Below are positions 7,655 to 24,188 of a DNA stretch of 64,000 nt, piece after piece. A model generated the notes under the pieces. That model saw nothing but the letters and a program-made list of their open reading frames with translations. It was not told where the DNA came from and did no database searches. The stretch spans positions 737,533 to 801,532 of the forward strand of contig NJBG01000001.1 in assembly GCA_005222965.1 (NCBI GenBank), read 5' to 3'. A program made the translations under genes and the position numbers. The stretch is from Candidatus Woesearchaeota archaeon B3_Woes (GTDB lineage: Archaea > Nanobdellota > Nanobdellia > Woesearchaeales > B3-WOES). Every line of letters begins with the position of its first letter. Within the stretch, counting starts at the first letter, position 1.

Positions 7655-7660
7655 TTAATT
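7587..7660 (+). repeat. Gene-tail repeat copy 1 (inside the intact gene)
   Basis: ...gccttagtaatcggctttcacatctctagaaaacagcagaaataattaatt. Confidence 0.95.
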
Positions 7661-7738
7661 AATTACTTTGTTTTAATAACCTAACACAATCTTAAAAAAT
7701 CTCCTCTATTCATAATCTTTTATTGATAAGTGAGAAAA

Positions 7739-8788
7739 CTATTTACTGTAAATTTGTTCAAGAGTTGCTAAAGTTAAAGGTTTATTTCCTAAACCTAATT
7801 GTTCTGCATTTTGAAAAAAACCACCAATATACAATATTCTTCTTTTATCAGTTTCAAAAAATAAATTTTGTTTTTCAGCTTCTGTAATATTGTGGTCTAT
7901 TGCTTTTTGTGTTATACGTTGGGTAGATATTTTCTGTTTTAATTGCTCAAAACTATTTTTATCTCCATAAATTAATCTTCCTGCAAATAAAGGATCAGTA
8001 ACACCAATGTCTAAATTATCAGATAATTGAGCGAATTCTTCTCTATTAAGTTCATAAATATTAAGATAACCATTAAAAAAATTAGTTGAAGGATTAGAAG
8101 AAACAACAAATAAGTCAATGTCACTCTCGGGTTTTTGAGAGCCATAAAGAACAACAAAATCAACATTATCAAAAGCAGAATCATATAATTTTTTAACAAC
8201 ATCTATAACTTTGTTATCATCATAAAACTTTGGAAATCCAAGCTGAGACATAAAACCAAATCTTGTAAGTCTTAATTCAGCATCATGAAAAAATTCAAAC
8301 AAAGATACATAATCCTCTGGCAATCCATCTTTTTTCAATTGCCATATTCTTACATTATCAGTTTCTTCACAAAGCAACGCTTCAAGCCATACAGCAAACC
8401 CTTCATAATTATCAATATTTGTTTTACACAAACCCAGAGATTGTTCTTGTGAATTAACTTCATCAAACAAAAAAGATCCTTCATCGCCATTACTCTGAAT
8501 GATATCAACTAATTGTTTGCCAATTTGGGAATGTTCACAAAACAAACCATGACCAAAAAACTCATGAAAAACATTTGAAATTAAAACAGGGCTATCAGTT
8601 CTAACATAAGCAGAATAAGAAGCAGGAACATACAAACCAACACTATTCACATCAAAACCATTAACTTGACAAAAATGTTGCCAATTTTCTGGAGAATAAG
8701 GTTTAAGTTGAGATTGTTGTAATTGTAAGTCGAATTCAGACGAAATGAAAGAAGATGCTTCGAATAGTAGGGAATCTAATGATGACAT
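7739..8788 (-). CDS. Nucleotidyltransferase-domain protein with N-terminal HExxxH region
   Basis: FHEFFGH...EGFA; YGSQKPESDIDLFV (GS-x-DxD); start refined to ATG 8788. Confidence 0.7.
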   Translation of the reverse strand: MSSLDSLLFEASSFISSEFDLQLQQSQLKPYSPENWQHFCQVNGFDVNSVGLYVPASYSAYVRTDSPVLISNVFHEFFGHGLFCEHSQIGKQLVDIIQSNGDEGSFLFDEVNSQEQSLGLCKTNIDNYEGFAVWLEALLCEETDNVRIWQLKKDGLPEDYVSLFEFFHDAELRLTRFGFMSQLGFPKFYDDNKVIDVVKKLYDSAFDNVDFVVLYGSQKPESDIDLFVVSSNPSTNFFNGYLNIYELNREEFAQLSDNLDIGVTDPLFAGRLIYGDKNSFEQLKQKISTQRITQKAIDHNITEAEKQNLFFETDKRRILYIGGFFQNAEQLGLGNKPLTLATLEQIYSK

Positions 8789-8795
8789 TTTTAAT

Positions 8796-9161
8796 TTAGT
8801 CAAATCCCGAATAATCTGCTATTTTTTTTATTTCATCTATAAGTTCACTTCTGCTAGCTTCGTCGGTTCGAATAATTACTTCAATTGTTTCTGGCAAGAA
8901 GATTATGTCCACATCATACTGATTGTTTTCTGTATGTTCCACTCCTGAATATTTTTTATCAATTTTATGCTTCTCACTTCCTATAGACATAATTGGATGT
9001 GCTTCCTCATAGAAAAAAGATGTTTTTTGGAGATTTAGTTTTTCTAAAAAAATAGGAAAAATGTAGAAAAATTGTTCTATTTCATTTTTAGAGAACTTGA
9101 AATAATTTCTTCTATTTTCATTTCCAAGTCCAATAAGTTTAATTTTTTTTATTTCTCCCAT
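8796..9161 (-). CDS. Hypothetical protein
   Basis: 121-aa ORF overlapping its upstream neighbour. Confidence 0.6.
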   Translation of the reverse strand: MGEIKKIKLIGLGNENRRNYFKFSKNEIEQFFYIFPIFLEKLNLQKTSFFYEEAHPIMSIGSEKHKIDKKYSGVEHTENNQYDVDIIFLPETIEVIIRTDEASRSELIDEIKKIADYSGFD

Positions 9162-9511
9162 GGTACTCTAACTAGTTCTACTCCTGGAATTTTTATTGAA
9201 GTATGTCCTCCGTAAGGATTGTCATACCTATCTATTTTAAAGGTGTCATGGACATCACCACCCAACCCAGTTTGGTTTCCATAAGGAATAACAACAGGGT
9301 TTATAGGACTTGATGGTAAACCTGGAATCTGTCCAACGTTTCCAGCCATTTCACTTCCAGCAGGACAGTCACACATTGAGTTCCATATACAGTACAAAGC
9401 AGTTGTTCCTGCTGTATACACATCTATTGTTTCATACCTTTTTGCTTGTCCGGTTGTTGGAACAAGTTCCAACATTTGTTCTAAAACTTGACTTTCCATT
9501 TTGTTCCCCAA
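9149..9511 (-). CDS. Hypothetical protein
   Basis: 120-aa ORF (ATG at 9499 is an alternative start); first gene of the minus-strand trio. Confidence 0.6.
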   Translation of the reverse strand: MGNKMESQVLEQMLELVPTTGQAKRYETIDVYTAGTTALYCIWNSMCDCPAGSEMAGNVGQIPGLPSSPINPVVIPYGNQTGLGGDVHDTFKIDRYDNPYGGHTSIKIPGVELVRVPWEK

Positions 9512-9620
9512 AAGTTTTTCAGTCTATTGATTAATATTTAATGTAAAGCATAGTAACTATAAATAATTTGTGGTGATTCATCTGGAAGATTTAGAAAACA
9601 ATAATCACTTAACAAATTTT

Positions 9621-9689
9621 CTTTTTGTTATCACAACAGCCTTAGTAATCACATTTCACATCTCAAGAAAACAACAGAAATAATTAATT
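9621..9689 (+). repeat. Gene-tail repeat copy 2
   Basis: Reads LFVITTALVITFHISRKQQK* with no start codon. Confidence 0.95.
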
Positions 9690-9763
9690 CTTGAGAAAAA
9701 ATTTAACAATCTATTTTTCTAAATATTATTAAAAGAAAGGTTTTATAAAGGATAAGTAATTAA

Positions 9764-9781
9764 TTTTACCAAATGGTAAAA
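9764..9781. promoter_or_regulatory. Palindrome over the start codon, candidate autoregulatory operator
   Basis: TTTTACCA-AA-TGGTAAAA, downstream of GAAAGG-TTTTATAAA BRE/TATA. Confidence 0.55.
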
Positions 9782-10363
9782 AAAGTTACTAAAACTAAAA
9801 TTATAGCTCAATATAGTGATGATTACAATAAAAAATATTATTTAAGGGAATTAGCGGTTTTATTAAAAAAACCCCATCAAACAATAAAATCTTATATTAA
9901 AGAATTAGTAAAAGAAGGAATATTAACTAAGAACGAAAGAAAAAATATAATTGAGTATAGCCTTAATTTTAAAAATAAACAAATATATGATTATTTGGTT
10001 ATTGCTGAAAAGGAAATATTAATAGAAAGGTTAAAAGAAGAAACCCTTTTAAAGGTTTTATTTGAAAAACTTTCTTCTTTTTTTACAAATAATACTTTTC
10101 TTATTTTTGGATCATCAGTAGAAAAACTTCAGAAAGAATCAGATATTGATTTACTTATTATTGGAAAAGCAAATATTAATAAAAATATAAAAGAGTTTGA
10201 GGAAATCTATAATAAAAAAATACACAAAGTTCAAATTAACAATTTAAATAAATTAACTAGTACTTTAACTAAAGAAATATATAAAAAACACCTTATTATC
10301 AATAATACTGAGCAGATTATAAGATTTTTTGGAGGATTATATGAACAAAATAAAATGGTGTAA
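9773..10363 (+). CDS. wHTH + minimal nucleotidyltransferase (MNT antitoxin)
   Basis: YLRELAVLLKKPHQTI HTH; IFGSS...ESDIDLLIIG. Confidence 0.85.
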   Translation: MVKKVTKTKIIAQYSDDYNKKYYLRELAVLLKKPHQTIKSYIKELVKEGILTKNERKNIIEYSLNFKNKQIYDYLVIAEKEILIERLKEETLLKVLFEKLSSFFTNNTFLIFGSSVEKLQKESDIDLLIIGKANINKNIKEFEEIYNKKIHKVQINNLNKLTSTLTKEIYKKHLIINNTEQIIRFFGGLYEQNKMV

Positions 10364-10808
10364 AAAACAAGGAAGAGGGATTAAGCTTCAAGATCCTAAT
10401 AATAATCTTAGTGAAGAGTATTATGAAAATGCAGAAGAAAGTTTAAGGGTTTTAAGAAACATCACAGAAACAAAATCAAAGATGTGGCTTGCAACTACAA
10501 AATATTATATTGAGTATTTTGCTGTTTATTCTGTATTGATGAAAATAGGAATTAAGTGCGAGATTCATGATTGCACTATAGCTTTAGTGAAGTTTTTTGA
10601 AGATGAAGATATTATAGAAAAAGGAACAGCTAAAATTCTGGAAAACGATAAGGAATTAAGAATAGACAACCAGTATTACCTTAAAAATAAGCCTGTTAAT
10701 ATTGATTTTGGAAAGTTATCAGATTTTTTAATATCAATAAGAAGATCTTTAGATAAACTAGATAATGATAAGATAGCTAAACTAATAAAGAAAATTAAAG
10801 GATTTTAG
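10341..10808 (+). CDS. HEPN-domain protein (putative toxin)
   Basis: YYIEYFAVYSVL, CEIHDCT, RIDNQYY; overlaps the MNT gene; start refined to ATG 10341. Confidence 0.8.
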   Translation: MNKIKWCKKQGRGIKLQDPNNNLSEEYYENAEESLRVLRNITETKSKMWLATTKYYIEYFAVYSVLMKIGIKCEIHDCTIALVKFFEDEDIIEKGTAKILENDKELRIDNQYYLKNKPVNIDFGKLSDFLISIRRSLDKLDNDKIAKLIKKIKGF

Positions 10809-10827
10809 AAGTTTTTGAAAAACTTAA

Positions 10828-10890
10828 AATCTTTTTATTATAACAACAATAGCCTTCCACATCAGCCGAAAACAGCAGAAATAATTAATT
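10828..10890 (+). repeat. Gene-tail repeat copy 3
   Basis: Reads NLFIITTIAFHISRKQQK* using AGC-CGA in place of TCT-AGA. Confidence 0.9.
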
Positions 10891-11030
10891 CTTGAGAAAA
10901 ATATTCAACTATATATTTCTAGTTCCGACATCCTAAAAATATAGCTCATTTATATACTTTTCGCGCTACATTCAACTTTTTTATAAATAAAATAGAAAAA
11001 TTTATATACTAGATATATCTACATTTAACT

Positions 11031-11654
11031 ATGAAAAATGAAGAAATTCTCAAAAAACTTGAAGGAATTCAAACCATTGAAACAGTAATGGATTCGTTAA
11101 GCGTAAACAAAGAGAAAGCTATCTATTACATTCATAGGTTGCGCAAAATAGGTTATGTCAAAACTAAAAAATTAAGCAACAATAAGAGAGTATACAACAT
11201 ATCATTTGAAAATAGATTAAAAGGAATTAGTTATTATGAAATCATAAATAAGCATTCCCCTATAAAAATATCAACTCCTAAAACATACAGGATTTATGGA
11301 AAAGAACCAACCCTTGAAGAAACATTAGTTTATGCAATTAAAACACAAAGCTTTAGGATCATACTTGCAGCTTTAATATTATTTAAGAAAATTGACGACT
11401 GGGTTAGTCTATATCAACTAGCAAAGAAAAATCATATTGAGAGACAGGTAGGCGCTCTTTATGATGTTGCTAGAAGAATAATGCTAACAAGAAGAATGAC
11501 AAATAGATTTAGAAATAATGCCTTGCCAAAAAAAGATTATCAATGGAGATCTGTTATCCCAGAATTAAAATCTGATGATTTCAAAAATATTGAGAAAATG
11601 TGGAAAATATATCTCCCCTTTAATAAAAAAGATATGGAGGCTTACAAAAAATGA
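11031..11654 (+). CDS. HTH-containing AbiEi-like antitoxin/regulator
   Basis: N-terminal HTH-like segment; ATGA-coupled to a nucleotidyltransferase gene. Confidence 0.55.
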   Translation: MKNEEILKKLEGIQTIETVMDSLSVNKEKAIYYIHRLRKIGYVKTKKLSNNKRVYNISFENRLKGISYYEIINKHSPIKISTPKTYRIYGKEPTLEETLVYAIKTQSFRIILAALILFKKIDDWVSLYQLAKKNHIERQVGALYDVARRIMLTRRMTNRFRNNALPKKDYQWRSVIPELKSDDFKNIEKMWKIYLPFNKKDMEAYKK

Positions 11655-12313
11655 TTTCAATAGAAGCACAACAAAAATTACTTCTTAATATCTCACGAAG
11701 ATTAAAGAAACCAATAACAGCTTATGCTATTGGGGGAACTGCAATGATGTTCCTTGGATTTAAAGATTCCACTCTTGACATAGACCTTGTATTCGAAAAC
11801 AAGCAGGATCGTGAAATATTTGAGAAAGCTGTTAAAGAAATTGGCTACAGAGAGATGGATTCAGTAATAGTGTATGGAACAAAGCAAAATCAACCAAAAA
11901 TGTTTACATTAGGGGATGAAAGATTGGATCTTTTTGTAATGCATGTGATTGATTTTGATTTTTCTAAGAAAATGATGGAACGAGCAGAACAAACTCATCA
12001 ATTTAATAATAATCTTCTTTTAAAGATTGCGAATCCTCACGACCTTATTTTAATGAAATGTGCTACTGATAGAAAGAAAGATATTGATGATGCAAGAAGA
12101 ATGATCAATAGTACAAAAATAGATTGGAACATTCTAATTAATGAAGCGAAAACACAGATAAGACTTGGAAGACATACTGCTGCTTTTGATTTAGGAGAAT
12201 TTTTAGAGAAACTCAAATACAAAATGAAAATAAATATTCCAAAAGAAGTTCTAGATGATTTATTTGAAATAGTTAAAGAACAAGCAGAAGATAAACAAAA
12301 GAAACAAACTTAG
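11651..12313 (+). CDS. AbiEii/DUF6036-like nucleotidyltransferase
   Basis: IGGTAM...TLDIDL, DLILMK..DRKKDIDD. Confidence 0.8.
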   Translation: MISIEAQQKLLLNISRRLKKPITAYAIGGTAMMFLGFKDSTLDIDLVFENKQDREIFEKAVKEIGYREMDSVIVYGTKQNQPKMFTLGDERLDLFVMHVIDFDFSKKMMERAEQTHQFNNNLLLKIANPHDLILMKCATDRKKDIDDARRMINSTKIDWNILINEAKTQIRLGRHTAAFDLGEFLEKLKYKMKINIPKEVLDDLFEIVKEQAEDKQKKQT

Positions 12314-12362
12314 CCCAGAGTTAATTCAGAATATATAATCTTTACTTAATAATAAACCAAAT

Positions 12363-12419
12363 TTAACAGCAACAGCCTTAGTAATCGGCTTTCACATCTC
12401 TAGAAAACAATAGAAATAA
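12363..12419 (+). repeat. Gene-tail repeat copy 4
   Basis: Reads LTATALVIGFHISRKQ*K*. Confidence 0.95.
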
Positions 12420-12703
12420 CCAAGAGAAATATTTAACCACCTATCTTGTCTGAGCACTATGGAAAAGATGACGGTGTCCTCCTTTATTAACGTTTCTATT
12501 TTAAGACTGTGCCCAGACTGGATTCTCCTAACATTAACACATGGTCTAAAAAATGATACAAAAGCTATTGAAGAAAACGAATCTATCTAAAAAACAATTC
12601 AAAACTTAGAAGAAGAACCAGAACCAAACTTCATAATGTACACACTAACAATTCTTGCAATGTTTGTTTTTGGTTTATTTTGCTTTTAGTAAAAAGAAGT
12701 GGA

Positions 12704-14056
12704 TTATTTGACGATTCTTATATTTTTCACATTAGTAAATTGTATAAAACCCATCTTTGAAAAAATAAATCCTAATCCACTTTTTTTCCTTCCACCCCAT
12801 GGACATTGATCGGAGGAGCCCCCTATTTTATTTATTCCAACAGTAAAATAATCTAATCTTTTGGCAACATCTTTTCCTTTTTTAATATTTTTTGTCCAGA
12901 CAGATGCTGTTAGACCAGTTTCATAAGAATTAACAATTGATATGACATCATTTATATCATTAAATTCACTAATTGTTATTAAAGGTGCAAGATATTCTTC
13001 CCTTAGTGATATCACACGTTTCAAATTTACGGATAAGATAGTGGGTTCTAAAATATTTTTTTTAAACTCCCCACCATACACCAATTTGTAATTCTTATTA
13101 CTTATTAATTCTTTAACTTTTTTTATTTGTTTTTGGGTCTTTAAAGGACCTATTTTTATATTTGGATTAAGAGGATCACCCATTTCTAGTTTTTTTATTT
13201 CTTCTTTTAAGTCATTAATAAAATCATTCCTTATTTTTTTATGAATAAAAACTTTTCTTACATTATTACAGGCTTGTCCAGAATTTTTTGTGAAACCCAT
13301 GATTAAATTTTTAATCGCGTATTTAGCATCAGCATCTTGCAAAACTAACATCACATCATTACCACCTAATTCAAGAATGAGTTTTCTAATATTTGTTGAT
13401 GAAACTTGGTATATTTTTTTGCCAACATTATAACTTCCTGTAAATGATATCATATCTATATTACTTTTCGTTATATAATTTCCTTGTTCAGAACCACCCA
13501 TTACAAGAGAGAATATATTCTCATCGATCCCAGCAGATCTCATAATTTCTTTTATTTTCAGACCACACAAAGGAGATAATTCAGATGGTTTGAACATTAC
13601 AACATTTCCACAAATAAGAGCAGGTATAATACTCCATAAAGGGATATTTATAGGATAGTTCCAACCAGTTATAACACCAACAGCACCAATTGGTTCAAAA
13701 ATTATATGATTTGTTGTTTTTTCATCGATTTTTATTTTCTCTTCTTTGAAATATTTTTCAGAATTATTCAAAAAAAAATTTAACCTAGATACAATCATAT
13801 CTATAGATATTAACGATTCTTTTATCGGCCTACCTATTTCCAAACTAATTAATTTAGCAATTTCCTCTTTTTTTTCTAAAATCTTTCTTGGTACACTTCT
13901 AAGTAGTGAGATTCTTTTACTAAGTTCTAACTGTGACCAGTAAACAAATCCCTTTCTTAATTTTTTTATCTTTTTATCAATATCTATTTTAGAATCGCAA
14001 CCTAATTTCCCAATAATTTTATTATTAAAGGGATTATAACTTTTTATATATTTCAT
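12704..14056 (-). CDS. Aldehyde dehydrogenase
   Basis: GWNYP, KPSE, FTGS, LELGGN, GQAC, WGGRKKSG. Confidence 0.93.
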   Translation of the reverse strand: MKYIKSYNPFNNKIIGKLGCDSKIDIDKKIKKLRKGFVYWSQLELSKRISLLRSVPRKILEKKEEIAKLISLEIGRPIKESLISIDMIVSRLNFFLNNSEKYFKEEKIKIDEKTTNHIIFEPIGAVGVITGWNYPINIPLWSIIPALICGNVVMFKPSELSPLCGLKIKEIMRSAGIDENIFSLVMGGSEQGNYITKSNIDMISFTGSYNVGKKIYQVSSTNIRKLILELGGNDVMLVLQDADAKYAIKNLIMGFTKNSGQACNNVRKVFIHKKIRNDFINDLKEEIKKLEMGDPLNPNIKIGPLKTQKQIKKVKELISNKNYKLVYGGEFKKNILEPTILSVNLKRVISLREEYLAPLITISEFNDINDVISIVNSYETGLTASVWTKNIKKGKDVAKRLDYFTVGINKIGGSSDQCPWGGRKKSGLGFIFSKMGFIQFTNVKNIRIVK

Positions 14057-14060
14057 TTCA

Positions 14061-15320
14061 TCAATACACTTTTTTAATAAATTCGTTTATGTTCATACCT
14101 TTTTCAATCAATTTCATACCATCATCAACCATTATTATATTAGGTTTTAGATATACAAAATTTTCAGACATACTTAGAGTATATGAACCACAATTCAGTA
14201 TAACCATGCAATCATTTTCCTTTATTTTATAAGATTGAATATTTCTTGAAATAACTCCAGCAGTAGACCCAATCCCATCCCCTATATTTATAATTTCCTT
14301 TCCTTCTGTTTTTGTACATGAGATTGGATAGAATCTATTATGTCTTGTTGGTATAAGTATGTTGGTACCAATATCTACAATAACCCACTTTTTTCCAACA
14401 CTCTTCTTTTTTGTTATAACATTTGTTAAGGCAGCAAATGCATCATTTACAATGTATCTGCCGGGTTCTAATATCAACTCTCCATCAAAATTATATTTCT
14501 TCAATATCTTTGATATCCTAGCAGCAAAAAACTCCATAGAACAATTTTTATTTTTTATTAGGAAATTTGAATTAAACCCACCCCCTATATCAATAAATTT
14601 TATATCTATTTCTTTTGATTTAAGGAATTTATAGAATTTACAAAGTTCTTCAGCAACTCTACAGTGCATATTAGGGGAAACTTCGTTTGCTAAAACATGG
14701 CAATTTAAGCCAACCAAGTTTAAGTTTTTTAATTTTTTGATATCTTTTACTAATCTAAAGGCTTCTCCAGATTTGATATCTATCCCTAGTTTTTCTCCCC
14801 TATTAACAAAAAGACTGTTATCCTTAATGTCTGGATGAACTCTTAAACCAACATTAACAACCTTGTTCATTTTTTTGGCAAGGTAGTTTATTTTATTTAT
14901 CTCTGATAAAGAATCACAATTTATACACTTGATTTCCTCTTTTATAACTAACTTTAGTTCTTGCTCTGTTTTAGCACAGCCATTGAAAATAATATCTTTC
15001 TTATCAAAACCGATTTTTCTGCCATATATGTATTCTATATCTGAGAGGATCTCTATTTTTAATCCTTCCTTTTTTATTTTTTCACATATTTTTCTTAAAT
15101 AACACGCCTTTAATGCATAATGTATATTAGTATTCTTATAATATTTCCTAAAAGCCTTTTTAATTTCTTTGATATTTCTCAATAAAGTTTTTTCAGAATA
15201 TAGAATTATGGGGGTATCAAATTTAGATAAAATTCTTTTATAGTTGATGTTATTTATGTGTATCTGATTATCTATATATTTCATCTCTTTTAATGAATTA
15301 ATTATCTTTTCCATTTTCAA
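14061..15320 (-). CDS. PLP-dependent group IV (LysA/ODC-like) decarboxylase, divergent
   Basis: YALKA, FNGCAK, GLRVHP, DIGGG, EPGRY, GSYT; no GPxC motif. Confidence 0.85.
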   Translation of the reverse strand: MKMEKIINSLKEMKYIDNQIHINNINYKRILSKFDTPIILYSEKTLLRNIKEIKKAFRKYYKNTNIHYALKACYLRKICEKIKKEGLKIEILSDIEYIYGRKIGFDKKDIIFNGCAKTEQELKLVIKEEIKCINCDSLSEINKINYLAKKMNKVVNVGLRVHPDIKDNSLFVNRGEKLGIDIKSGEAFRLVKDIKKLKNLNLVGLNCHVLANEVSPNMHCRVAEELCKFYKFLKSKEIDIKFIDIGGGFNSNFLIKNKNCSMEFFAARISKILKKYNFDGELILEPGRYIVNDAFAALTNVITKKKSVGKKWVIVDIGTNILIPTRHNRFYPISCTKTEGKEIINIGDGIGSTAGVISRNIQSYKIKENDCMVILNCGSYTLSMSENFVYLKPNIIMVDDGMKLIEKGMNINEFIKKVY

Positions 15321-15957
15321 AGAGTTTAGTGGGATTTATTTTTAGCTTTGAAATAATTTTTCCTGAAAAAGTTGGTTTGAAAATAGCATCTTCTGGAATA
15401 GTTTCATTAGATTTTATAAAATTTCCATTATTGTTCAACTCAGAATAAGTTATACTTTCTTTATATAATATATCGAAATTATCTTTTTTAACGAATATGA
15501 TTCCAGGTATTTCATCAGAATGGAAGGGTTCTTTTTTTATCTCTCCAATAAAAATGAATAATAACAAACCCCACTTACCATCTTTATTAGGATCCCCCGG
15601 CATTCCTGGAGAGATAAACTCCACAACATAGGCAGGACCATCTTTTATTTTTAATATTCCTTTTTCATTGTTTTCTTTTATGTGTGTTGTGTCTTTTAAG
15701 GGCATAATTTTAATTTCTTGTAGGATTTCCTCTTTTACTTCTCTTAAAGCAGCACGCAAAGGGGATTCTTTTTGTTCTATCCTACCTCCCACACAACTAA
15801 AACCTATCTGAGTCATATTATTACGCTTTTTCCAGTATTTGGATTTATTTATAGCAAAAATAAAGAAATCTTGAAACTTTACAATAGTTGTAGACCCAGC
15901 TATAATAGGTATAGAAGAAAATCTTTTTTTGAAATTTATAAGCAGTTTATTATACAT
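15298..15957 (-). CDS. NUDIX hydrolase
   Basis: Nudix box GGRIEQKESPLRAALREVKEEI. Confidence 0.85.
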   Translation of the reverse strand: MYNKLLINFKKRFSSIPIIAGSTTIVKFQDFFIFAINKSKYWKKRNNMTQIGFSCVGGRIEQKESPLRAALREVKEEILQEIKIMPLKDTTHIKENNEKGILKIKDGPAYVVEFISPGMPGDPNKDGKWGLLLFIFIGEIKKEPFHSDEIPGIIFVKKDNFDILYKESITYSELNNNGNFIKSNETIPEDAIFKPTFSGKIISKLKINPTKLFENGKDN

Positions 15958-15974
15958 ATCACCTAATATCTTCT

Positions 15975-16050
15975 TTAGATTTATAAATGTTTTTATGTTT
16001 AATCATATTTACTACTGGTGAGTAAAATAAAACAAAAGATTTATAAATTC
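15975..16050. promoter_or_regulatory. Divergent archaeal TATA promoters
   Basis: TTTATAAA at 15980-15987 and 16040-16047, each ~22 nt from the flanking ATG, with A-rich BRE-like flanks. Confidence 0.6.
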
Positions 16051-16068
16051 TGATCTTATACTAAACAT

Positions 16069-17859
16069 ATGCACCATAAAGAAATTACCAATATTTTCTT
16101 GAATTATTTTATAGATAGAGATCATCATTTATTACCAAATCAATCTTTAATACCATCTGAATCTGATTCATCTGGTCTTTTTATAAACTCAGGTATGCAC
16201 ACAATAAAACCTTATTTTTATGGAATAGAAAAACCTCAAAAAAGTAAGCTATGTTCAATACAAAAATGTTTAAGAACAATAGACATTGATAATGTTGGAT
16301 ATAACAGAAGGACTTTAACACTCTTCTCTATGTTAGGCAGTTGGTCAATAAATGATTATTGGAAGGAAGATGCTATTCCACTTGCTTATGAATTATTAGT
16401 AGATAGTTTTGGTTTTGATCCAAATAAGTTAAGTGTTACTTATTTTGAAGGAGATGATAAAGTACCTGAAGATTTAGAAACAAAGGCAGAATGGGAAAAA
16501 GTTGGAGTCCCAGAAGAAAGGATTATAAAATTGGATGGAAAGAACAATTTTTGGTCTGCAGGACCTACAGGTTTATGTGGGCCTTGTACAGAAATTTATT
16601 TTGATAGAGGAGAAGAATATGGTTGCGGAGAAGAAACATGTAAACCTAGTTGTGATTGTGATAGGTATTTGGAAATATGGAATGCAGGGGTATTTATTCA
16701 ATATGACAGACAAAAAGATGGTAGCTTAAAGACTCTCCAACTTATAAGCGTGGATACGGGTGCAGGTCTTGAAAGAATAGCAACTATCTTACAAGGCAAG
16801 GATTCAGTATATGACACCACCATATTTAAACCAATCGTTTCCAATATAATCAGTTCTTGCAGTATAGAAAAAGAAGACTTATCATCAGAAAATAAATATG
16901 TTAGAATCATAGCAGACCATTTAAGAGCCTCAACATTCTTACTAGCCGAAAACATTATTCCAAGCAACATTGATAGAGGTTATGTTTTGAGGAGACTTTT
17001 GAGGAGATCAATAAATCATGCTTCAAGTTTAGGTATTGAGAAAGATGGTCTAGTTGGTGTTGTTGATAAAATAATCCTCAATGAGGGTGAAGAACATACA
17101 TATCTTCAAGAGAACAAGGATATAATATTACTTAATTTTGCTAGAGAATATGATGGATTCATCAAAACCCTAAATAAAGGTAAGAAAAAATTAATGCAAG
17201 CAATTGAAGGATTATTTCAAGGAAGTGAACTGGAATCACAGATAGCATTTAATCTTTTTGATACTTATGGATTCCCATTTGAATTGACAGAGGAAATTTG
17301 TAAACAGAAAGGAATAATAGTTAATCAAAACACATTTAAGGACTTATTACAAGAACACAAAGCCAAATCAAGAGCTGGTTTTCAAAAAAAGTTTAGTTCT
17401 GGTTTAATGACCAGTTCATATATCTGTGTGAAATATCATACTGCAACACATTTACTACATCAGGCTTTGAGGGATGTTTTAGGTGAAGAGGTTGAACAAA
17501 AAGGGAGCAATGTTACCCCAGAAAGATTAAGATTTGATTTTTCATTCCAAAGACCTTTAACACCTGAAGAAATTTCTAATGTAGAAGAGATAGTAAATCA
17601 AAAGATAAAATCTAATTTAAAAATCACAAAAAAAGTAACAAGTTTAGAAGAGGCAATTGCCTCAGGGGCGATAGCATTATTTCAAGATAAGTATGATAAA
17701 AAAATTAATGTCTACTCAATAGGGGATTATTCTAAAGAGGTTTGTAAGGGGCCACATATCCAAGAAACCTCTGAATTAGGGAATTTTAAAATTATTAAAG
17801 AAAAAAGTTCTTCATCAGGTATTAGGAGAATAAGAGCAGTACTAAAAGAGGAATTTTAA
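16069..17859 (+). CDS. alaS: Alanyl-tRNA synthetase-like protein (short form lacking C-Ala)
   Basis: NSGM, QKCLR, GPCTEI, DTGAGLER, RGYVLRR, DTYGFP; editing motifs HTATH and CKGPH. Confidence 0.85.
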   Translation: MHHKEITNIFLNYFIDRDHHLLPNQSLIPSESDSSGLFINSGMHTIKPYFYGIEKPQKSKLCSIQKCLRTIDIDNVGYNRRTLTLFSMLGSWSINDYWKEDAIPLAYELLVDSFGFDPNKLSVTYFEGDDKVPEDLETKAEWEKVGVPEERIIKLDGKNNFWSAGPTGLCGPCTEIYFDRGEEYGCGEETCKPSCDCDRYLEIWNAGVFIQYDRQKDGSLKTLQLISVDTGAGLERIATILQGKDSVYDTTIFKPIVSNIISSCSIEKEDLSSENKYVRIIADHLRASTFLLAENIIPSNIDRGYVLRRLLRRSINHASSLGIEKDGLVGVVDKIILNEGEEHTYLQENKDIILLNFAREYDGFIKTLNKGKKKLMQAIEGLFQGSELESQIAFNLFDTYGFPFELTEEICKQKGIIVNQNTFKDLLQEHKAKSRAGFQKKFSSGLMTSSYICVKYHTATHLLHQALRDVLGEEVEQKGSNVTPERLRFDFSFQRPLTPEEISNVEEIVNQKIKSNLKITKKVTSLEEAIASGAIALFQDKYDKKINVYSIGDYSKEVCKGPHIQETSELGNFKIIKEKSSSSGIRRIRAVLKEEF

Positions 17860-17882
17860 TATTAACTAGTTTTGAATACAAA

Positions 17883-19082
17883 ATGAGAATAAAACTTGAT
17901 AAAACCCCAATAAAAAAATTTCAAAAGGAAAATGGTTTTGTTCTATACAATCCACTGAACCACGAGATAGTGTTTAACAAATCAAATCTCCAACCAGCGG
18001 ATGATATATTCTTAGATTCTATTACACTAGAAAGACCTAAATTAAAAAAGGCAAGAGTTGAGCTAACTTTAGGGTGTAATGCTGCATGCAAATATTGTGT
18101 TGTTTTTAAAAATGATGTATCAAATATTGGAAAAACGATGAATCATGGAACAGCTAGAAATATTGCGGCCTTTTTTAATGAAAATATGATGGGTGGTACA
18201 CTCATGTTGATAGGGGGCGAACCCTTGGATGCGTGGGACATAACAAAATATCTCTTTGAGTCTTGTGAAGCAGGAGAGAAAGTACTTTTTACTAATGGTA
18301 CTTTGGTAACTAAAGAGTATGCTAAATTTTTATCTGACCAAAAAGTATTGGTTTTGGTTTCATTAGACGGTATGCATCAACATAACACTCAAAGAGTATA
18401 TTCAGATGGACGCGAGATTTTCGGTGATACAATAAGGGGTCTTCGAACTTTACAAGATGCAAATTCAAAAATCGCTATATCTGCTGTTGTTACAAACCAT
18501 AATGTTTATGATCTTGCAGATATAGTAGAGTTCTATCATAAAGAGCTTAGTGTGGATTCAGTGGGTTTAACAACCCCCCATCATATAAATAATTTTGACT
18601 TTGCACTAGATATAAAAGAATATACTAATCAAATGTTAAATATATTTTCATATTCACAAGAAAATAATATTTATATAGATCAGATAGCAAAGAGAATTAA
18701 AGCTATAGCTCACCAGGATTTTAAAGATAGGGCGTGTAAAATATCGGGAGATCAAATTACTTTTTATCCAGATGGTACAACTAGTCTATGCATAAAAATA
18801 GATAAAATACCTAAATTAAAAGACAAAAAGGCAGATTATTATTTCGAAAAATTGCCAATCTTTGACTCTAGTTGCGTGGAGTGTACTGCTATAGGTGTTT
18901 GCGGAGGAGGTTGTTATTTAGATGCTTTTTATGATCCTACTGGTAGGGATCAAAGGGATTGTTATTTTTACCCAAAATTAGTTGAGCATATTATATGGGA
19001 TATGAAAGACTTAGTTGATGAAAAAGGCAAAATATCCAAAGAAAAAAGGATCCTAAAATACAAGGGTATGTTACATGAATAA
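17883..19082 (+). CDS. Radical SAM/SPASM protein
   Basis: CNAACKYC, GGEP, SLDG; C-terminal C...C, CVECTAIGVCGGGC...C. Confidence 0.92.
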   Translation: MRIKLDKTPIKKFQKENGFVLYNPLNHEIVFNKSNLQPADDIFLDSITLERPKLKKARVELTLGCNAACKYCVVFKNDVSNIGKTMNHGTARNIAAFFNENMMGGTLMLIGGEPLDAWDITKYLFESCEAGEKVLFTNGTLVTKEYAKFLSDQKVLVLVSLDGMHQHNTQRVYSDGREIFGDTIRGLRTLQDANSKIAISAVVTNHNVYDLADIVEFYHKELSVDSVGLTTPHHINNFDFALDIKEYTNQMLNIFSYSQENNIYIDQIAKRIKAIAHQDFKDRACKISGDQITFYPDGTTSLCIKIDKIPKLKDKKADYYFEKLPIFDSSCVECTAIGVCGGGCYLDAFYDPTGRDQRDCYFYPKLVEHIIWDMKDLVDEKGKISKEKRILKYKGMLHE

Positions 19083-22000
19083 CGTATTAAAAGAGATAGA
19101 AAGGATAAAGAGTAGTGAGAAAATCCTATTTAAATTGGATAAAAATAAAAAATATAAAATCACTCTTTGTTATCCAGATACCTATACAACAGGTATGCCA
19201 AACTTAGGAATCCAATATTTCTTCAAAGAAATTAACACAAGGAATGATTTTTTTGCTGGCAGGTGTTATTTGCCTAATAAAAAGGTTTGGAAAAAAATAG
19301 TAGAGTGTAATCTACCTTTATATGATTGGGATTCTTTGGAAGAATTAAAAAATTCTGATATACTTTCTTTTACAGTTTCTTTTGAAGATGAATTTGTGAA
19401 TATCGTAAGAATGTTAAAATTTGCAGGAATTAATCCCATCGCTTCAGAAAGGAAAGAAAAAGGTCCTTTGATAATTGCAGGGGGTCCGTGTTCTAGTTAT
19501 AATCCTGAACCATTTTCAAAATTTATAGATGCTTTTGTTATAGGTGAAGGAGAAACAATGATACATAAATTGCTAGATATTTACAAGAATTCTGAGGATA
19601 AAAAAAGTTTTCTTAGAAATATAGATGTTTTAGAATCTGTCTATGTCCCTTCATTCTATGATTTCGAGTTTGAAGGCAAAAGAATAAAAAAAATTATCAT
19701 AAATGGAAAGGAAAATGTTTATAGAAACTATGTTAAAAATCTCGACAAATCCCCTATTTGTTCTACAATAATAAATAAAAAATCACAATATAAAGAAGAA
19801 GTTTTCTCAATAGAAGTTTCAAGAGGATGCAGGATGCATTGCAGGTTTTGTTATATAGGTAACCATTTTAGAAAACAAAGGGTGTTATCTCTCAACAAAA
19901 TAAAAGAACTCATTAATGAAGGGAAAAAATATACAAAAAACATAAAACTTTTTTACGAGGTTTTACCACCTAAGTATTATTCTGATTTATTCAAAGTTTT
20001 ATTGGACTTTGTTAAAAAAGATGACATAAAACTTAAATTAGGATCATTTAGAGTAGAATACCTAAACAGTAATATCGTTAATGTTGTTGCCATGGGTAAC
20101 CAAGACAAGATTATCATTGCTCCAGAAACAAGCGAAGGTAAACTGAGAAATTTCATAAATAAAGGTCAAATGAGCGACGAAAAAGTAAAAAATGCTGTTA
20201 AATTATGTCTCGAAAAAAGCATAAAAAATTTTGGTTTATATCTTATGGTTGGAATACCCACAGAAACCAAAAAAGATATAGACTCTTTGATAAATCTTAT
20301 TATAGATGTTTTTAATATAATAAAGGATAGAAACAAGAAGGGGATTTTAGAAGTCCATATAAATGCATACTTCCCTAAACCACTAACACCTTTGCAGCTG
20401 GAAAGAAACATATCTCAAAAAGAAGCAATAGGAAAAATAGAGTATATACAATCTAAGATTAAAATAAGATTAAATAGTGAGGATTTTAAAAGAGTGCATT
20501 TTAAAACAATAGTTTATGATGAGATATCTTACAGCCAACCCATCCTAACAAGGGGGGATAGACGTCTAGGGAATGTTTTACTTGATGTATGTAAACTAAC
20601 TTATCCTTACACAAACAAAACACCAACACCCGAAATATGGGACTATGCATTAAGAAAAAATAGACTAGAAGCAAAATATTACTATCGTGAAAGGGATTCT
20701 ACTGAAATTATGCCGTGGCATATAATAAAAAATAATACTAGCAAAACCTACTTTATGAGAGAAAGGGAGAGAGCATATAAAGGTCAGCTAACTGATCCTT
20801 GTCATCATTCATCATGTGATGTTTGTAAATCTTGTCTAGATGTAAACCAATTAATGAAGATTGTTATAGTTTGTCCACCATTAAAAGCACCTATAAAATC
20901 ATGGAGATACTGCCCCTATCATAATTGGAAATTTTCTTTTAGTACAGGCGATCATGGTTACTCGGGCGTAAATATGCCTATATGTTTAATTGCTTCTTTT
21001 TTGAGGAAAAAAGGCATTAATGTTGATATTCTTGACGCTTTTTTTGAAGATATTTCGATAGAAGATACTATAGAAAAGATATCTAAATATAGCATTATAG
21101 GGATAACTGTACATTCTAATGTCAATCTTACCGACATAAAAAAAATAATAAAGAAATTAAGAAGTCTAAGAAAAAATCATAAGATAGTACTTGGAGGTCA
21201 CTATCCTTCATATTTCCCTGAGAAATGTATAAATGAGCTAGATGCAGATTTTGTTATAAGGGGAGAAGGAGAAGAATCAATGTTTGAATTAATTCAATGT
21301 TTACAAGAAGGTTTTGATTTAACTAAAGTAAAAGGGTTGACATTTAAACAAAAGGGTAGAATCTTTAGTAACGAACCAAGGGAAAAAATAAATAACCTGG
21401 ATAGTTTACCTTTTATGGCGAGAGATTATATACAAAAAGAACTTGAACTTAAATTTGTCCCTGCTATATCTTCGAGTAGAGGTTGTGATTATTCAGGATG
21501 TTCTTTTTGTGATATTGCTTCTTTTCAAAAAACATCAATTGGTCCTGTTTGGAGAGGGAGATCTGCTAAGAATATAGTAGATGAGATAGAATACATAACC
21601 AAAAAGTGGAAATTTAATAAATTTAAATTTGTTGATCCAAATTTTGTAGGGGGGAAAAATGGGAGAAAAAGAGCTTATAAAATCGCAGACGAAATTATCA
21701 AAAGAGGATTAAAAGTTAGATATATGTTTGACACAAGAGTAGATGAGATTAATAAAAAATTGTTTAAAAAGTTATATAAATCTGGTTTAAGGATGGTTTA
21801 TCTCGGAGTCGAATCCTGTATCCAGAGGCAACTTGATTATTTTAATAAAAATACAACGCTTCAATCAAACAAAAAAGCTATAAAAACTTTAAGAGAGACA
21901 GGCATTATACCTCTTTTTGGAATCATAGTATTTGAACCAACAACAACCCTAGAAGAAATTAGAAAAAACTTTGACTACTTTATTTCGAAAGGTGGATTCA

Positions 22001-22416
22001 ATATTTATAGGTTTGTTAGAGGAATTATTCCTAGATTTGGTACACCTATGATGGATATGTTCGAAAAACAAGGCATACTCATAAAATCTTATCCTGACTA
22101 TAAATACAAATTCGAGAATAAAGAAGTAAGGGTACTTTTTAATAAATCAGATATATATGCACAAAATGTTTTTTTGATTGAAAAAAAGTATAAAGAAAAA
22201 ATATTGAAAAAAATATCAAAAGAAATTAACAGACCTTTCTTTTTACATTTAGAGAGATTCCTAAAACAAAAAACCATTGAACATTTTGAACTTTTATTAA
22301 AGGAGTTTGAAATAAACAAAGATGTTTCTCCTCAACTTATAGATAAAATGATCAAAAATTTTAGTAAAGAAATAGAAACAGAATTTAAAACTAAATTAGA
22401 AAATGCCAAGATTTAG
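19075..22416 (+). CDS. Fused double radical SAM protein (two B12-binding-like + radical SAM modules)
   Basis: SRGCRMHCRFC and SRGCDYSGCSFC, each preceded by AGGP/LGGH...GEGE; Cys-rich linker. Confidence 0.9.
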   Translation: MNNVLKEIERIKSSEKILFKLDKNKKYKITLCYPDTYTTGMPNLGIQYFFKEINTRNDFFAGRCYLPNKKVWKKIVECNLPLYDWDSLEELKNSDILSFTVSFEDEFVNIVRMLKFAGINPIASERKEKGPLIIAGGPCSSYNPEPFSKFIDAFVIGEGETMIHKLLDIYKNSEDKKSFLRNIDVLESVYVPSFYDFEFEGKRIKKIIINGKENVYRNYVKNLDKSPICSTIINKKSQYKEEVFSIEVSRGCRMHCRFCYIGNHFRKQRVLSLNKIKELINEGKKYTKNIKLFYEVLPPKYYSDLFKVLLDFVKKDDIKLKLGSFRVEYLNSNIVNVVAMGNQDKIIIAPETSEGKLRNFINKGQMSDEKVKNAVKLCLEKSIKNFGLYLMVGIPTETKKDIDSLINLIIDVFNIIKDRNKKGILEVHINAYFPKPLTPLQLERNISQKEAIGKIEYIQSKIKIRLNSEDFKRVHFKTIVYDEISYSQPILTRGDRRLGNVLLDVCKLTYPYTNKTPTPEIWDYALRKNRLEAKYYYRERDSTEIMPWHIIKNNTSKTYFMRERERAYKGQLTDPCHHSSCDVCKSCLDVNQLMKIVIVCPPLKAPIKSWRYCPYHNWKFSFSTGDHGYSGVNMPICLIASFLRKKGINVDILDAFFEDISIEDTIEKISKYSIIGITVHSNVNLTDIKKIIKKLRSLRKNHKIVLGGHYPSYFPEKCINELDADFVIRGEGEESMFELIQCLQEGFDLTKVKGLTFKQKGRIFSNEPREKINNLDSLPFMARDYIQKELELKFVPAISSSRGCDYSGCSFCDIASFQKTSIGPVWRGRSAKNIVDEIEYITKKWKFNKFKFVDPNFVGGKNGRKRAYKIADEIIKRGLKVRYMFDTRVDEINKKLFKKLYKSGLRMVYLGVESCIQRQLDYFNKNTTLQSNKKAIKTLRETGIIPLFGIIVFEPTTTLEEIRKNFDYFISKGGFNIYRFVRGIIPRFGTPMMDMFEKQGILIKSYPDYKYKFENKEVRVLFNKSDIYAQNVFLIEKKYKEKILKKISKEINRPFFLHLERFLKQKTIEHFELLLKEFEINKDVSPQLIDKMIKNFSKEIETEFKTKLENAKI

Positions 22417-23140
22417 TATGAGTGAATGGAAAAAAGAAGGATTTGATATTAGAATATTAGATAAACCCGTCCAATATGCGAATCTAGACAGGATGTGTTT
22501 GACACACCCCTGCTATTTTCATTTTAATAATTATCAAGCGAGCAATTTTTATTCATTAGAATCTGTTTTTGATGGAGGACTTAAATTTTTAGTTCTTGCT
22601 TTTCCAAAAAATAAAGATTTGAGTAGAAAATCAAAATTTGATGTAGATTCAATAGATGATTATATAGCCTTTTATAAGAGTATAAATGGTAATGATTATG
22701 AATTTAATTTTGTTGAACAGATAGAGGGTATAAAAAAAGGGTTTGTAGGGGTTGCTATTTCAGATGAAAAAGGCAATGTTTTGATAGAGTGTTATAAACA
22801 ACCTTATGAAACAAATGTATATAAATTTACTAGCGGATCATGCGATCCAGTTAACATTTCTTCTTTTTTATTTATGGATTATGGAGATTTAACTTTAGCA
22901 GATGTTGGTAAAGCAAAACCTTCTTTGAGAATACTCAAGGATATTGAGCAAAAAGTCGATCTTTTTTTTGGATACTTTGAATTCATTTATGGAAAAACAG
23001 AACATCTAGGAGAATGCATCTATTTTACAGATCATCAAACAGACAAGAATTTTTTAAGCAGTCTTTATTCTTCCATGGATGAACTAGGAAATGTAACAAA
23101 AAGATTAAATGCTAGTATAATAAAATCTTGTTTAGATTAA
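22403..23140 (+). CDS. Hypothetical protein, last gene of the biosynthetic operon
   Basis: 245-aa ORF overlapping the upstream gene. Confidence 0.7.
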   Translation: MPRFSMSEWKKEGFDIRILDKPVQYANLDRMCLTHPCYFHFNNYQASNFYSLESVFDGGLKFLVLAFPKNKDLSRKSKFDVDSIDDYIAFYKSINGNDYEFNFVEQIEGIKKGFVGVAISDEKGNVLIECYKQPYETNVYKFTSGSCDPVNISSFLFMDYGDLTLADVGKAKPSLRILKDIEQKVDLFFGYFEFIYGKTEHLGECIYFTDHQTDKNFLSSLYSSMDELGNVTKRLNASIIKSCLD

Positions 23141-23274
23141 TGAATCTTTCTTCGTTCTGCCACTAAAGTTTCCATTTTATGTATCTATTATAATTTTTGT
23201 TTTATTAAACTGAAAAAATTCTTTAAAACCCATTTAAGAATATTATATTTTGGTTTATATAAATGTATAGTACA

Positions 23275-23334
23275 ATCACAACAACAGCCTTAGTAATCGG
23301 CTTCCACATCTCTAGAAAACAACAGAAATAATTA
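23275..23334 (+). repeat. Gene-tail repeat copy 5
   Basis: Reads ITTTALVIGFHISRKQQK*. Confidence 0.95.
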
Positions 23335-23339
23335 TTTAT

Positions 23340-24188
23340 TTATCTTATACTAACTTGTTGTTGCTTTTGTACACATTCCTTTCTGTACATTTTTACTCTT
23401 TTTATCAACTGCTTTTCTTCTTTGTCTAATCTTCGCTTTTGTGAATAAAGCTCTAATCCTCTATCAAAAGCCCCTACTGCTTCATCATACTGTTCTAATA
23501 ACATAAGAGACCTTCCTATTCCAATGTCAAAAAAAGGAAAATTTGAGTCAATACACTTTCCTTTATTAAAATATAATAAAGCTAATTTAGGATTTTCTTT
23601 ACCTAAATATACATTACCAATACTTTGGTAATTTTCCTTCGCTTTTTTGTCTGAATTAAGAGTTTCTTTAAATGAGTCTAGTGCTTCATCCAATCTCCCT
23701 TGGAAATGATATGCAAGTCCAATATTATAGGTTGTTATAGGATGCCCACCACTTAATACATTAGCAGATTTAAAAGCCTCTAATGCTTCATCATATTTTC
23801 CTTGATTAAGTAACTTTTTACCTATTGCATTCATATTTCCACCAGCTCTTGATAAATCAGATAAAACAGACCTTCCTTTTAATCCATTATCAACAGCCAA
23901 ACCAAACTCAGATAAAGATGCATCATAATATTCATCAACATCTTCTTCATATAGTTGACTTAATTCAAAATGTAAATTAGGATCTTTAGGTTTTTCTTCT
24001 ATTCTTTGTTGTAATTGTGATATTCTTGATTCTAAAGAATTACCTATTTGTTCTTGTACAAAACTTCCATCTAAAGAACCACTTGCTTGTTCTTGTCCAA
24101 AAACTTTAGAAAGATAGGAAAAAGCAGAAGCTAATACAACTCCTTTTGCTACATCTTTTCCTAATCCTAAAAACTCTCTTCTATTCAT
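23340..24188 (-). CDS. TPR protein with twin-arginine-like N-terminus
   Basis: MNRREFL; repeated GKYDEAL / YNIGLAY / GNVY TPR patterns. Confidence 0.8.
   Translation of the reverse strand: MNRREFLGLGKDVAKGVVLASAFSYLSKVFGQEQASGSLDGSFVQEQIGNSLESRISQLQQRIEEKPKDPNLHFELSQLYEEDVDEYYDASLSEFGLAVDNGLKGRSVLSDLSRAGGNMNAIGKKLLNQGKYDEALEAFKSANVLSGGHPITTYNIGLAYHFQGRLDEALDSFKETLNSDKKAKENYQSIGNVYLGKENPKLALLYFNKGKCIDSNFPFFDIGIGRSLMLLEQYDEAVGAFDRGLELYSQKRRLDKEEKQLIKRVKMYRKECVQKQQQVSIR

Follow-up and report, generated by a model that had tools for sequence, protein, structure and literature searches.

Integration of mobile elements into the 3′-distal parts of protein-coding genes, with arrays formed by re-use of the same site, has been described (PMC6563490, PMC5704250), and in bacteria integrated elements decay to att-flanked elements that lack an integrase, followed by tandem accretion (PMC5704250). 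Clusters of attC sites without an integrase are reported to be the commonest form in archaeal genomes (PMC9668308). This report concerns an array of comparable appearance in Candidatus Woesearchaeota archaeon B3_Woes (GenBank assembly GCA_005222965.1), located within a stretch of 64,000 nucleotides (nt) of contig NJBG01000001.1, positions 737,533 to 801,532 (the window, in whose coordinates plain positions are given). The last codons of a gene for a cupredoxin-like protein, 7088..7654, recur there four times downstream of the gene, and the block 7655–23331 probably consists of four att-flanked cassettes that were acquired horizontally and lie in tandem where this gene meets a convergent TPR gene. 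The genome that holds the window comprises 1,021,708 bases in 4 contigs and is 96% complete, and the named relatives of the window's proteins and loci are Nanoarchaeota, a DPANN lineage.

The portions of the literature drawn on here describe several systems with which the array can be compared. In streptococcal cis-mobilizable elements (CIMEs), as here, the interrupted gene is restored by an element-borne copy, unrelated elements lie in tandem, and some lack integration genes (PMC5704250). However, no recombinase is encoded in any of the four elements considered here or in that of a related locus (L021), the host is a DPANN archaeon, and the repeats are long (~55–110 nt) and diverged (71–89% identity) rather than near-identical. 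Integrated elements of thaumarchaea likewise target the 3′ end of a protein-coding gene, with the element supplying the stop codon and a relative's empty site verifying the insertion. Their att sites are short (13 bp in the example given, and generally short), whereas the site here spans two convergent gene ends, and they are classed as proviruses, casposons, conjugative or cryptic elements, whereas the present cassettes carry toxin-antitoxin-like pairs plus a metabolic island. Integron arrays share the small cassettes, the recurring site, the lack of an adjacent integrase and toxin-antitoxin-like cargo (PMC9668308), although the recurring site here is the tail of a coding gene and not a folded attC, and the cassettes contain multiple genes in mixed orientation. 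Islands of Dehalococcoides at the tmRNA gene ssrA also exhibit integration at a single-copy gene and site-specific mobilisation, but their target is an RNA gene, unlike the protein-coding target here (PMC3146451).

Tandem integration at the 3′ end of a gene is therefore of a kind already well known. What is unusual in this case is the DPANN host, a site that extends over two convergent gene ends, tails that are long, diverged and coding-competent, and the lack of a recombinase in the cassettes. The portions consulted of the literature on DPANN and archaeal integration, cis-mobilizable elements and archaeal integrons hold no description of this arrangement for DPANN.

A Repeated Gene Tail

The protein encoded by 7088..7654 is cupredoxin-like, although its Pfam match to Cupredoxin_1 is weak (16.4 bits, below the cut-off of 27), and some of its homologues are labelled “plastocyanin” in some sources. 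It ends in a hydrophobic segment followed by a basic C-terminal tail. The last 18–22 codons are present in five copies, all on the plus strand, of which one lies in the gene and four are orphans.

7088..7654, plus strand: target gene, encoding a 188-amino-acid (aa) cupredoxin-like protein with N-terminal and C-terminal membrane segments
7586–7651 plus stop, plus strand: tail copy 1, the last 22 codons of 7088..7654, inside the gene
9621..9683, plus strand: orphan tail copy 2, 21 codons plus stop; one insertion and one deletion, both in frame
10828..10884, plus strand: orphan tail copy 3, 18 codons plus stop; more diverged than any other copy, with a 12-nt in-frame deletion, Ser AGC and Arg CGA
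12363..12419, plus strand: orphan tail copy 4, with an internal TAG at 12411–12413
23275..23331, plus strand: orphan tail copy 5, the outermost, whose last 18 residues equal those of an intact allele (L020/P0006)

The repeat is specific to this locus. A degenerate 30-nt pattern covering the last nine codons plus stop of 7088..7654 matched the window at 7625–7654, 9654–9683, 10855–10884, 12390–12419 and 23302–23331, with no match in 100 shuffles. Searched against the whole genome (all 1,021,708 bases), it returned only these same five places, and a control pattern returned none. A profile of nine tails used with nhmmer also gave five matches in the genome (E ≤ 1.4e-9), the next best having E = 1.9. 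When the last 80 residues of the protein were used as a tblastn query, the orphans were recovered at 9621–9680, 10828–10881, 12363–12416 and 23275–23328 (E 1.6e-6 to 5e-5), and the BLAST identity of the orphan tails to the gene copy was 71–89%. Inspection by eye had raised the suspicion that copy 2 reaches further upstream into the gene; this was unsupported by tblastn and blastn, and tblastn detected no significant upstream extension of any of the four orphans. The 30-nt pattern was present in 1 of 401 genomes of the class searched, namely the window's own, and in no viral contig. Each of the five direct-repeat copies sits at a boundary between unrelated gene sets, and together they bound four cassettes.

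Orphan modules of CDI/Rhs-type polymorphic toxins consist of variable C-terminal toxin domains with cognate immunity genes and a conserved pre-toxin stretch before them. The orphans at this locus are instead the conserved extreme C-terminus (18–22 codons) with no variable domain, and this identification was rejected.

Some weaker similarities involve the target gene or its surroundings. Distant cupredoxin-like paralogues (29–33% identity) occur at window positions 327–707 and, on contig C1 of the genome, at 898898–899389 and 908185–908466, the match at C1:898898 containing three internal stop codons. Within the window, 7660–7698 resembles 23191–23228 (E 0.011), and 7502–7526 resembles 12612–12636 (E 0.029).

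Empty and Differently Filled Sites in Relatives

Two metagenome contigs, L019 and L020, align with the window at ~83% nucleotide identity over the upstream MscS gene and the target gene. In both, the target gene directly abuts a convergent TPR gene, the homologue of the following window gene.

23340..24188, minus strand: convergent TPR gene, which abuts the target gene in relatives

Beyond the TPR gene, both contigs continue with homologues of 24331..24609 and then of 24560..27697, and the whole block 7655–23331 is missing, which constitutes an empty site. The view, put forward in the original prediction, that the repeats did not arise by local duplication is borne out by the absence of the array from these two close relatives. 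A third locus, L021, contains the gene nearest to the target (91% protein identity) and is filled differently: a single 2 kb cassette encoding an MBL-fold hydrolase and a SnoaL-like protein is followed by an orphan tail and then by an unrelated gene. Both flanks of this orphan resemble those of copy 4 in the window, with L021 2404–2494 and 12330–12419 being 91% identical.

Other arrangements were found in contigs from sequencing runs. Just 6–7% of the sampled words of 7000–13000 were present in the runs, so the window's own population was not found there; the joints described here come from contigs of relatives and indicate neither abundance nor absence. In a contig of run X2, the end of cassette 2 (10841) is joined to a copy-5-type tail (23280), skipping cassettes 3 and 4. 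This contig is 96% like the end of cassette 2 (13 differences in 334 bases), with 52 letters on its shorter side. In a contig of runs X3/X4, 7654 and 23874 are separated by 503 letters of other sequence. Runs X3 and X4, which represent one sample, also contain sequence ~93% like cassette 3 (37 differences in 531 bases) in which 12358 is followed, after a single letter and with no tail copy, by a return to 10935. This joint could reflect a tandem or circular form of cassette 3, or an assembly effect.

Among more distant loci, the available DNA of L022, L023, L024, L016 and L026 contains no second tail copy. In L016 and L026, the two of these loci that were checked for synteny, the downstream genes lie ~0.5–1.3 kb after the target gene. 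Further to the right in the window, the gene 24560..27697 for a large secreted-looking protein is followed by a paralogue from ~27669, and single genes in L019 and L020 match both.

Coding-Type Divergence of the Orphan Tails

The original prediction held that the orphan tails are conserved as protein, and codon alignment agrees with it in each particular. Synonymous variants at Ser (TCT/TCA/AGC), Arg (AGA/CGA), Gln (CAG/CAA), Phe (TTT/TTC) and Ile (ATA/ATC) are all present, the indels keep the frame (+3 and −3 nt in copy 2, −12 nt in copy 3), and copy 4 has gained its TAG at 12411–12413 by a CAG to TAG change. The Ser switch from TCT to AGC in copy 3 involves three changed letters with the residue kept.

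Measured against a neutral expectation, changes are enriched at synonymous sites in copies 2, 3 and 5 and across the last nine codons. In these nine codons, which align without gaps, 13 of the 81 possible single-letter changes are synonymous, while four of the five distinct single-letter variants observed are synonymous and the fifth is the TAG (P = 0.003). A randomisation in which the observed number of differences was placed at random, counting runs with as few amino-acid-changing codons, gave P = 0.0001–0.007 for copy 2, 0–0.007 for copy 3 and 0.0001–0.007 for copy 5, the ranges reflecting the choice of reference allele and transition bias. The value for copy 4 (P = 0.03–0.35) is due to its few differences. 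By the Nei-Gojobori method, the proportions of nonsynonymous and synonymous differences (pN/pS) between orphans and gene are 0.06/0.35, 0.12/0.46, 0.06/0.25 and 0.12/0.44, similar to those between intact alleles of different genomes (0.06/0.27, 0.06/0.39 and 0.04/0.21). These tests rest on 16–22 codons per copy with the gapped part of the alignment set by hand, and variants common to several copies make them non-independent, so they serve as indications only; all point the same way. The synonymous bias, the pN/pS values and the last-nine-codon test together support the view that the orphan tails evolved as coding sequence.

Relationship of the Orphan Tails to Natural Alleles

The orphans were compared with 28 aligned homologues of the target protein, from which a 143-aa fragment (P0029) had been left out, and with three close loci. 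Among the 28, three homologues besides the window's own protein have the same last ten residues. The expectation that each orphan tail would match an intact allele elsewhere holds for some of the copies. Copy 5 is identical to the L020 allele (= P0006) over its last 18 of 18 residues; for copy 4 the agreement with this allele is 15 of 17 positions, and its stop accounts for one of the two differences. The indels of copies 2 and 3, by contrast, occur in no allele of the three close loci or of the 28 homologues. In nucleotide comparisons, copies 4 and 5 and the L021 orphan are 2 sites apart from one another, 3–6 sites from L020 and 5–11 from the resident tail, which is itself nearest to the intact genes of L021 and L019. 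Copy 3 differs from the other copies at 9–14 of ~50 sites, in addition to its 12-nt deletion. Since the L020 allele is a closer match to copies 4 and 5 than the resident tail is, the orphans are not duplicates of the tail that the gene has today.

The further proposal that the array records successive allele replacements from different donor lineages has to be modified. Its first element stands, in that the tails derive from different lineages, but only the last ~20 codons were replaced and not an allele, since the gene body upstream is collinear with relatives at ~83% nucleotide identity. The replacements are a by-product of cassette insertions, each cassette being bounded by a tail copy, and the array accordingly records cassette insertions that each brought a replacement tail, not replacements of gene alleles.

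The Junction with the Convergent TPR Gene

Homology at the insertion site is not confined to the target gene. The BLAST alignments with L019 and L020 reach 39–45 nt beyond the stop codon of the target gene, into the 3′ end of the oppositely oriented TPR gene, and a remnant of this end follows copy 1 in the window.

7655..7699: flank after tail copy 1, a decayed remnant of a TPR-gene 3′ end of L020/L019 type, on the reverse strand

The flank aligns with that of L020 over 22 nt at 91% (E 1.5e-5), and its reverse-frame peptide resembles the C-terminus of the L020 TPR protein. Copies 2 and 3 have 17 of 17 nt in common after the stop, and copies 2, 3 and 4 and the L021 orphan have further short stretches in common there; an origin of these post-stop stretches in the end of the TPR gene is only suggested. 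For cassette 1 at least, the travelling unit is thus the region where the two convergent genes meet.

A discontinuity lies within the TPR gene itself. Its 3′ two-thirds (23340–23873) is far more diverged than the 5′ third and not alignable with the DNA of relatives, whereas DNA similarity resumes at ~23874, where contig joints are also located in runs X2–X4 (23872–23875). The TPR proteins of the window and L020 are ~70% identical over the first ~105 residues by hand count and visibly much less beyond. Since similarity resumes only at 23874, the variable block extends into this gene, and a recombination breakpoint within it at ~23874 is indicated. In addition, strains probably exchanged the entire block through homologous recombination in the conserved DNA on either side.

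Contents of the Cassettes

The four cassettes comprise three small units and one larger island. Family assignments are based on Pfam.

7700..9620, minus strand: cassette 1, three open reading frames (ORFs), 7739..8803 (354 aa), 8796..9161 (121 aa) and 9149..9511 (120 aa)
9684..10827, plus strand: cassette 2, ORFs 9773..10363 (196 aa, helix-turn-helix plus nucleotidyltransferase) and 10329..10808 (159 aa, HEPN-like)
10885..12362, plus strand: cassette 3, ORFs 11031..11654 (207 aa) and 11651..12313 (220 aa, DUF6036 nucleotidyltransferase)
12420..23274, both strands: cassette 4, a 10.9 kb island with seven genes
12704..14056, minus strand: aldehyde dehydrogenase, cassette 4
14061..15320, minus strand: PLP-dependent decarboxylase, cassette 4
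15298..15957, minus strand: NUDIX protein, cassette 4
16069..17859, plus strand: second alanyl-tRNA synthetase (AlaRS), cassette 4
17883..19082, plus strand: radical SAM protein, cassette 4
19075..22416, plus strand: B12-binding radical SAM protein, 1113 aa, cassette 4
22403..23140, plus strand: 245-aa ORF, cassette 4

Three of the four cassettes are built around nucleotidyltransferase-fold proteins. The 354-aa protein of cassette 1 has a nucleotidyltransferase-like region in which both Polbeta and NTP_transf_2 score below their cut-offs. Of 150 other genomes of the order, 12 encode a homologue (up to 68% identity), and none was found in the only other genome of the same family, which is 78% complete; the 120-aa and 354-aa genes also occur together in L039, L040, L041 and L043. 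In cassette 2, the product of 9773..10363 matches Polbeta (32.4 bits, cut-off 26.9) and NTP_transf_2 (24.5 bits, cut-off 21), and that of 10329..10808 scores below the cut-off for HEPN (18.6 bits against 22). PADLOC reports this cassette as candidate PDC-M05A (E 5e-11), and it looks like an MNT/HEPN toxin-antitoxin or defence pair. The second protein of cassette 3 matches DUF6036 (31.5 bits, cut-off 23.6), and no family was found for its 207-aa partner. A toxin-antitoxin role of the small cassettes would be in keeping with these family resemblances. Cassette 4 encodes an AlaRS that is 45% identical to the genome's other one (C1:268260–269615), as well as a 245-aa protein found in none of 150 other genomes of the order. 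Judged by its gene content, the AlaRS paralogue, the radical-SAM enzymes and the nearby genes may form an aminoacyl-tRNA-dependent biosynthetic cluster.

GC content is 0.22–0.34 throughout, and base composition does not separate the cassettes from their surroundings. No Rfam family was found in 6000–25000, no tRNA gene in the window, and no conjugation or replication gene was seen in the four cassettes. None of nine inverted-repeat pairs brackets a cassette as terminal inverted repeats would. Transposon or casposon insertion was rejected on this ground and because the repeats are at least 55 nt long and diverged, not short identical target-site duplications.

Origin of the Array

Several features of the locus are directly established, namely the repeats, their coding-type divergence, the empty site, the different cargo in L021 and the lack of a recombinase gene in the array. 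In light of the parallel cases, site-specific integration is the most economical origin of the tail duplications. Each incoming element would carry its own copy of the junction, consisting of the last ~20 codons and, in at least some elements, ~40 nt beyond. Recombination in the shared stretch would set the element's copy in frame at the gene end, and the tail used until then would be left as an orphan at the element's far end. This is the attL/attR arrangement of an integrated element. The element-borne tail, derived from coding sequence of earlier hosts, would then serve as the working end of the protein and would remain under protein-level constraint until displaced, drifting thereafter; the TAG in copy 4 shows such drift after displacement. 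Copies 2–4 may once have been translated in this lineage, or only in the elements' earlier hosts. The three small cassettes may represent remains of larger elements cut to addictive or defence modules, or they may have been moved by a recombinase acting in trans. The mechanism was presumably recombination of the tails by a tyrosine recombinase, perhaps with a contribution from homologous recombination between them; because the array contains no recombinase gene, we infer this enzyme, as we do the order of the insertions.

A number of observations weigh against serial site-specific integration. The left ends of homology vary among the copies by up to ~18 nt, no recognisable core-site architecture was seen in the tails, and folding of the five copies as DNA on both strands revealed no shared or conserved hairpin (z −1.6 to +1.0). 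Pfam detected no recombinase family in the proteins of the four cassettes or of the L021 cassette, and the genome contains only two tyrosine-recombinase genes, both far off (C1:103163–104017 and C1:856270–856923, the latter 217 aa). Relatives of three cassette proteins were found in no viral contig, and no free or viral form was found. The contig joints come from single metagenome contigs at 85% likeness, which are prone to error. In addition, the native-looking downstream flank follows copy 1 and not the outermost copy 5, and the 3′ part of the TPR gene has itself been replaced, so a model of single successive insertions into a host that otherwise stayed the same is an oversimplification. Homologous recombination with other strains probably delivered or rearranged the array, at least in part.

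These points raise the alternative that homologous recombination alone built the array, with the 55–110 nt junction copies acting as anchors through which DNA composed of a cassette plus one copy, circular or linear, was integrated, deleted or swapped between strains as a strain-variable island. Such a process would account for the lack of a recombinase in 5 of 5 cassettes, for a right edge in the TPR gene at ~23874 that recurs in three runs, as expected for double crossovers in conserved flanks, for the other-lineage type of the flank that follows copy 1, and for the mere 2 sites that separate copies 4, 5 and the L021 orphan. It leaves the first acquisition of a junction copy by a cassette unexplained, however, copy 3 with its 12-nt deletion and differences at 9–14 of ~50 sites would be a poor substrate, and the classic att pattern is found at a tRNA gene and at other gene ends in this genome and a related one. 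As the sole origin of the array, homologous recombination is therefore judged unlikely, whereas as the mechanism of between-strain spread it is a serious rival for all except the first creation of each duplicated junction.

An integron-like platform, in which the repeats would be attC-type sites that fold as single strands and an integron integrase would capture the cassettes, is far less plausible. Small cassettes, some of them toxin-antitoxin-like, arrayed without an integrase do recall the integrase-less attC clusters reported for archaeal genomes (PMC9668308), and the genome's best candidate for an integron integrase is its full-length tyrosine recombinase, which scores 165 bits against a subfamily cut-off of 265. 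This protein scores as an archaeal XerA (221.8 bits, cut-off 220). Yet no integrase gene adjoins the array, and no tyrosine recombinase is encoded in the window region. Neither strand of any of the five copies folds into a conserved hairpin; the repeated sequence, the coding end of a gene, varies at synonymous sites and not in a paired-arm pattern; and the cassettes contain 2–7 genes each, with cassette 1 inverted. Local duplication, in which slippage or unequal crossing-over multiplied the tail on the spot and the copies then drifted, with the synonymous bias a product of chance or of DNA-level constraint, is the least credible of the alternatives. Although direct repeats that lie close together and are confined to one locus would suit it, the synonymous bias is as strong as that between intact alleles and includes the three-letter Ser switch, and orphans resemble the allele of another lineage more than they do the resident tail; by these two lines of evidence local duplication is largely refuted. 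The DNA between the copies is, moreover, unrelated and patchily distributed, and the site in relatives is empty or differently filled.

With the array read as a stack of integrated cassettes, a near-complete DPANN genome presents a hotspot for which an empty site, a differently filled site and a four-deep stack can be compared. The displaced tails would provide a readable record of element-borne att sequences that were kept under protein-level selection inside genes. The recombinase-less cassettes, three of four with toxin-antitoxin-like genes, make the movement of minimal cassettes in very small genomes a testable question. A broader conjecture is that small cassettes in DPANN move as a class without recombinases of their own, with a coding-competent copy of the junction as the recombination site and each insertion repairing both genes. 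This would amount to an integron-like platform in which a gene tail takes the place of the folded attC, an XerA-like recombinase in trans or the cell's own recombination provides the activity, and toxin-antitoxin-like modules hold the array. In this generality the idea is speculative and quite improbable.

Related Arrangements at Other Loci

Repeats of gene ends that bracket inserted DNA are also found elsewhere. In genome G420, a 1.1 kb nucleotidyltransferase/HEPN-like pair (L043:10851–12096, contig C20), 30–31% identical to cassette 2, is flanked by tRNA-Glu(ctc) on one side and, on the other, by a 71-nt orphan copy of the 3′ part of this tRNA (90% identical), and no recombinase gene lies beside the pair. 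By analogy with cassette 2, nucleotidyltransferase/HEPN-type modules may be what remains, or what moves, at such sites. The conjectured cassette platform, if true, would by the same logic account for this recombinase-less pair at tRNA-Glu, whose genome belongs to another family of the order. Homologues of the 120-aa and 354-aa proteins form a cassette-1-like module 3 kb upstream of the pair in L043.

The window's own genome contains two islands bracketed by repeats of coding ends. An 8.2 kb island of sugar-metabolism genes is bracketed by a perfect 42-nt direct repeat derived from the 3′ coding end of the gene for ribosomal protein L31e; the island encodes a ROK kinase, PIG-L, glycosyltransferase and glycoside hydrolase proteins, together with a 276-aa XerA-like tyrosine recombinase. 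A 78-nt repeat (98.7% identical), representing the 3′ end of an ORF of 384 aa or more, brackets an island of 3.9 kb.

L029:1649–1690 and 9859–9900 (C1:98148–98189 and 106358–106399): L31e-tail repeats
L030:1582–1659 and 5466–5543 (C1:919581–919658 and 923465–923542): 78-nt repeats with two paralogous genes of ~410–445 aa between

The recombinase of the L31e island was considered as the element's integrase and rejected, as it scores as an archaeal XerA just over the cut-off and may be the host's own. A 123-nt sequence beside the orphan copy at this island recurs just upstream of the recombinase gene with 81% identity.

Further repeats differ in position relative to genes. Three diverged direct repeats at L031:2164–2227, 3565–3628 and 6021–6078 (C1:979–983 kb) are spaced 1.4 and 2.5 kb apart, the last overlapping a tRNA-Ser(gga) gene, and look like stacked insertions at this tRNA gene. 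Two pairs of 64–79-nt direct repeats, with members ~1.1 kb apart, are located at C1:681761–681824/682940–683003 (95%) and C1:599250–599328/600295–600373 (87%). Both pairs overlap the 5′ ends of genes on the minus strand, a position that suggests duplication of gene starts, and not of gene ends, by insertions. Finally, upstream of the cassette-1-like 354-aa gene of L040 (genome G422, contig C37), direct repeats of 85–140 nt at L040:5528–7337, 440–860 nt apart, separate three small paralogous ORFs of ~80–94 aa.

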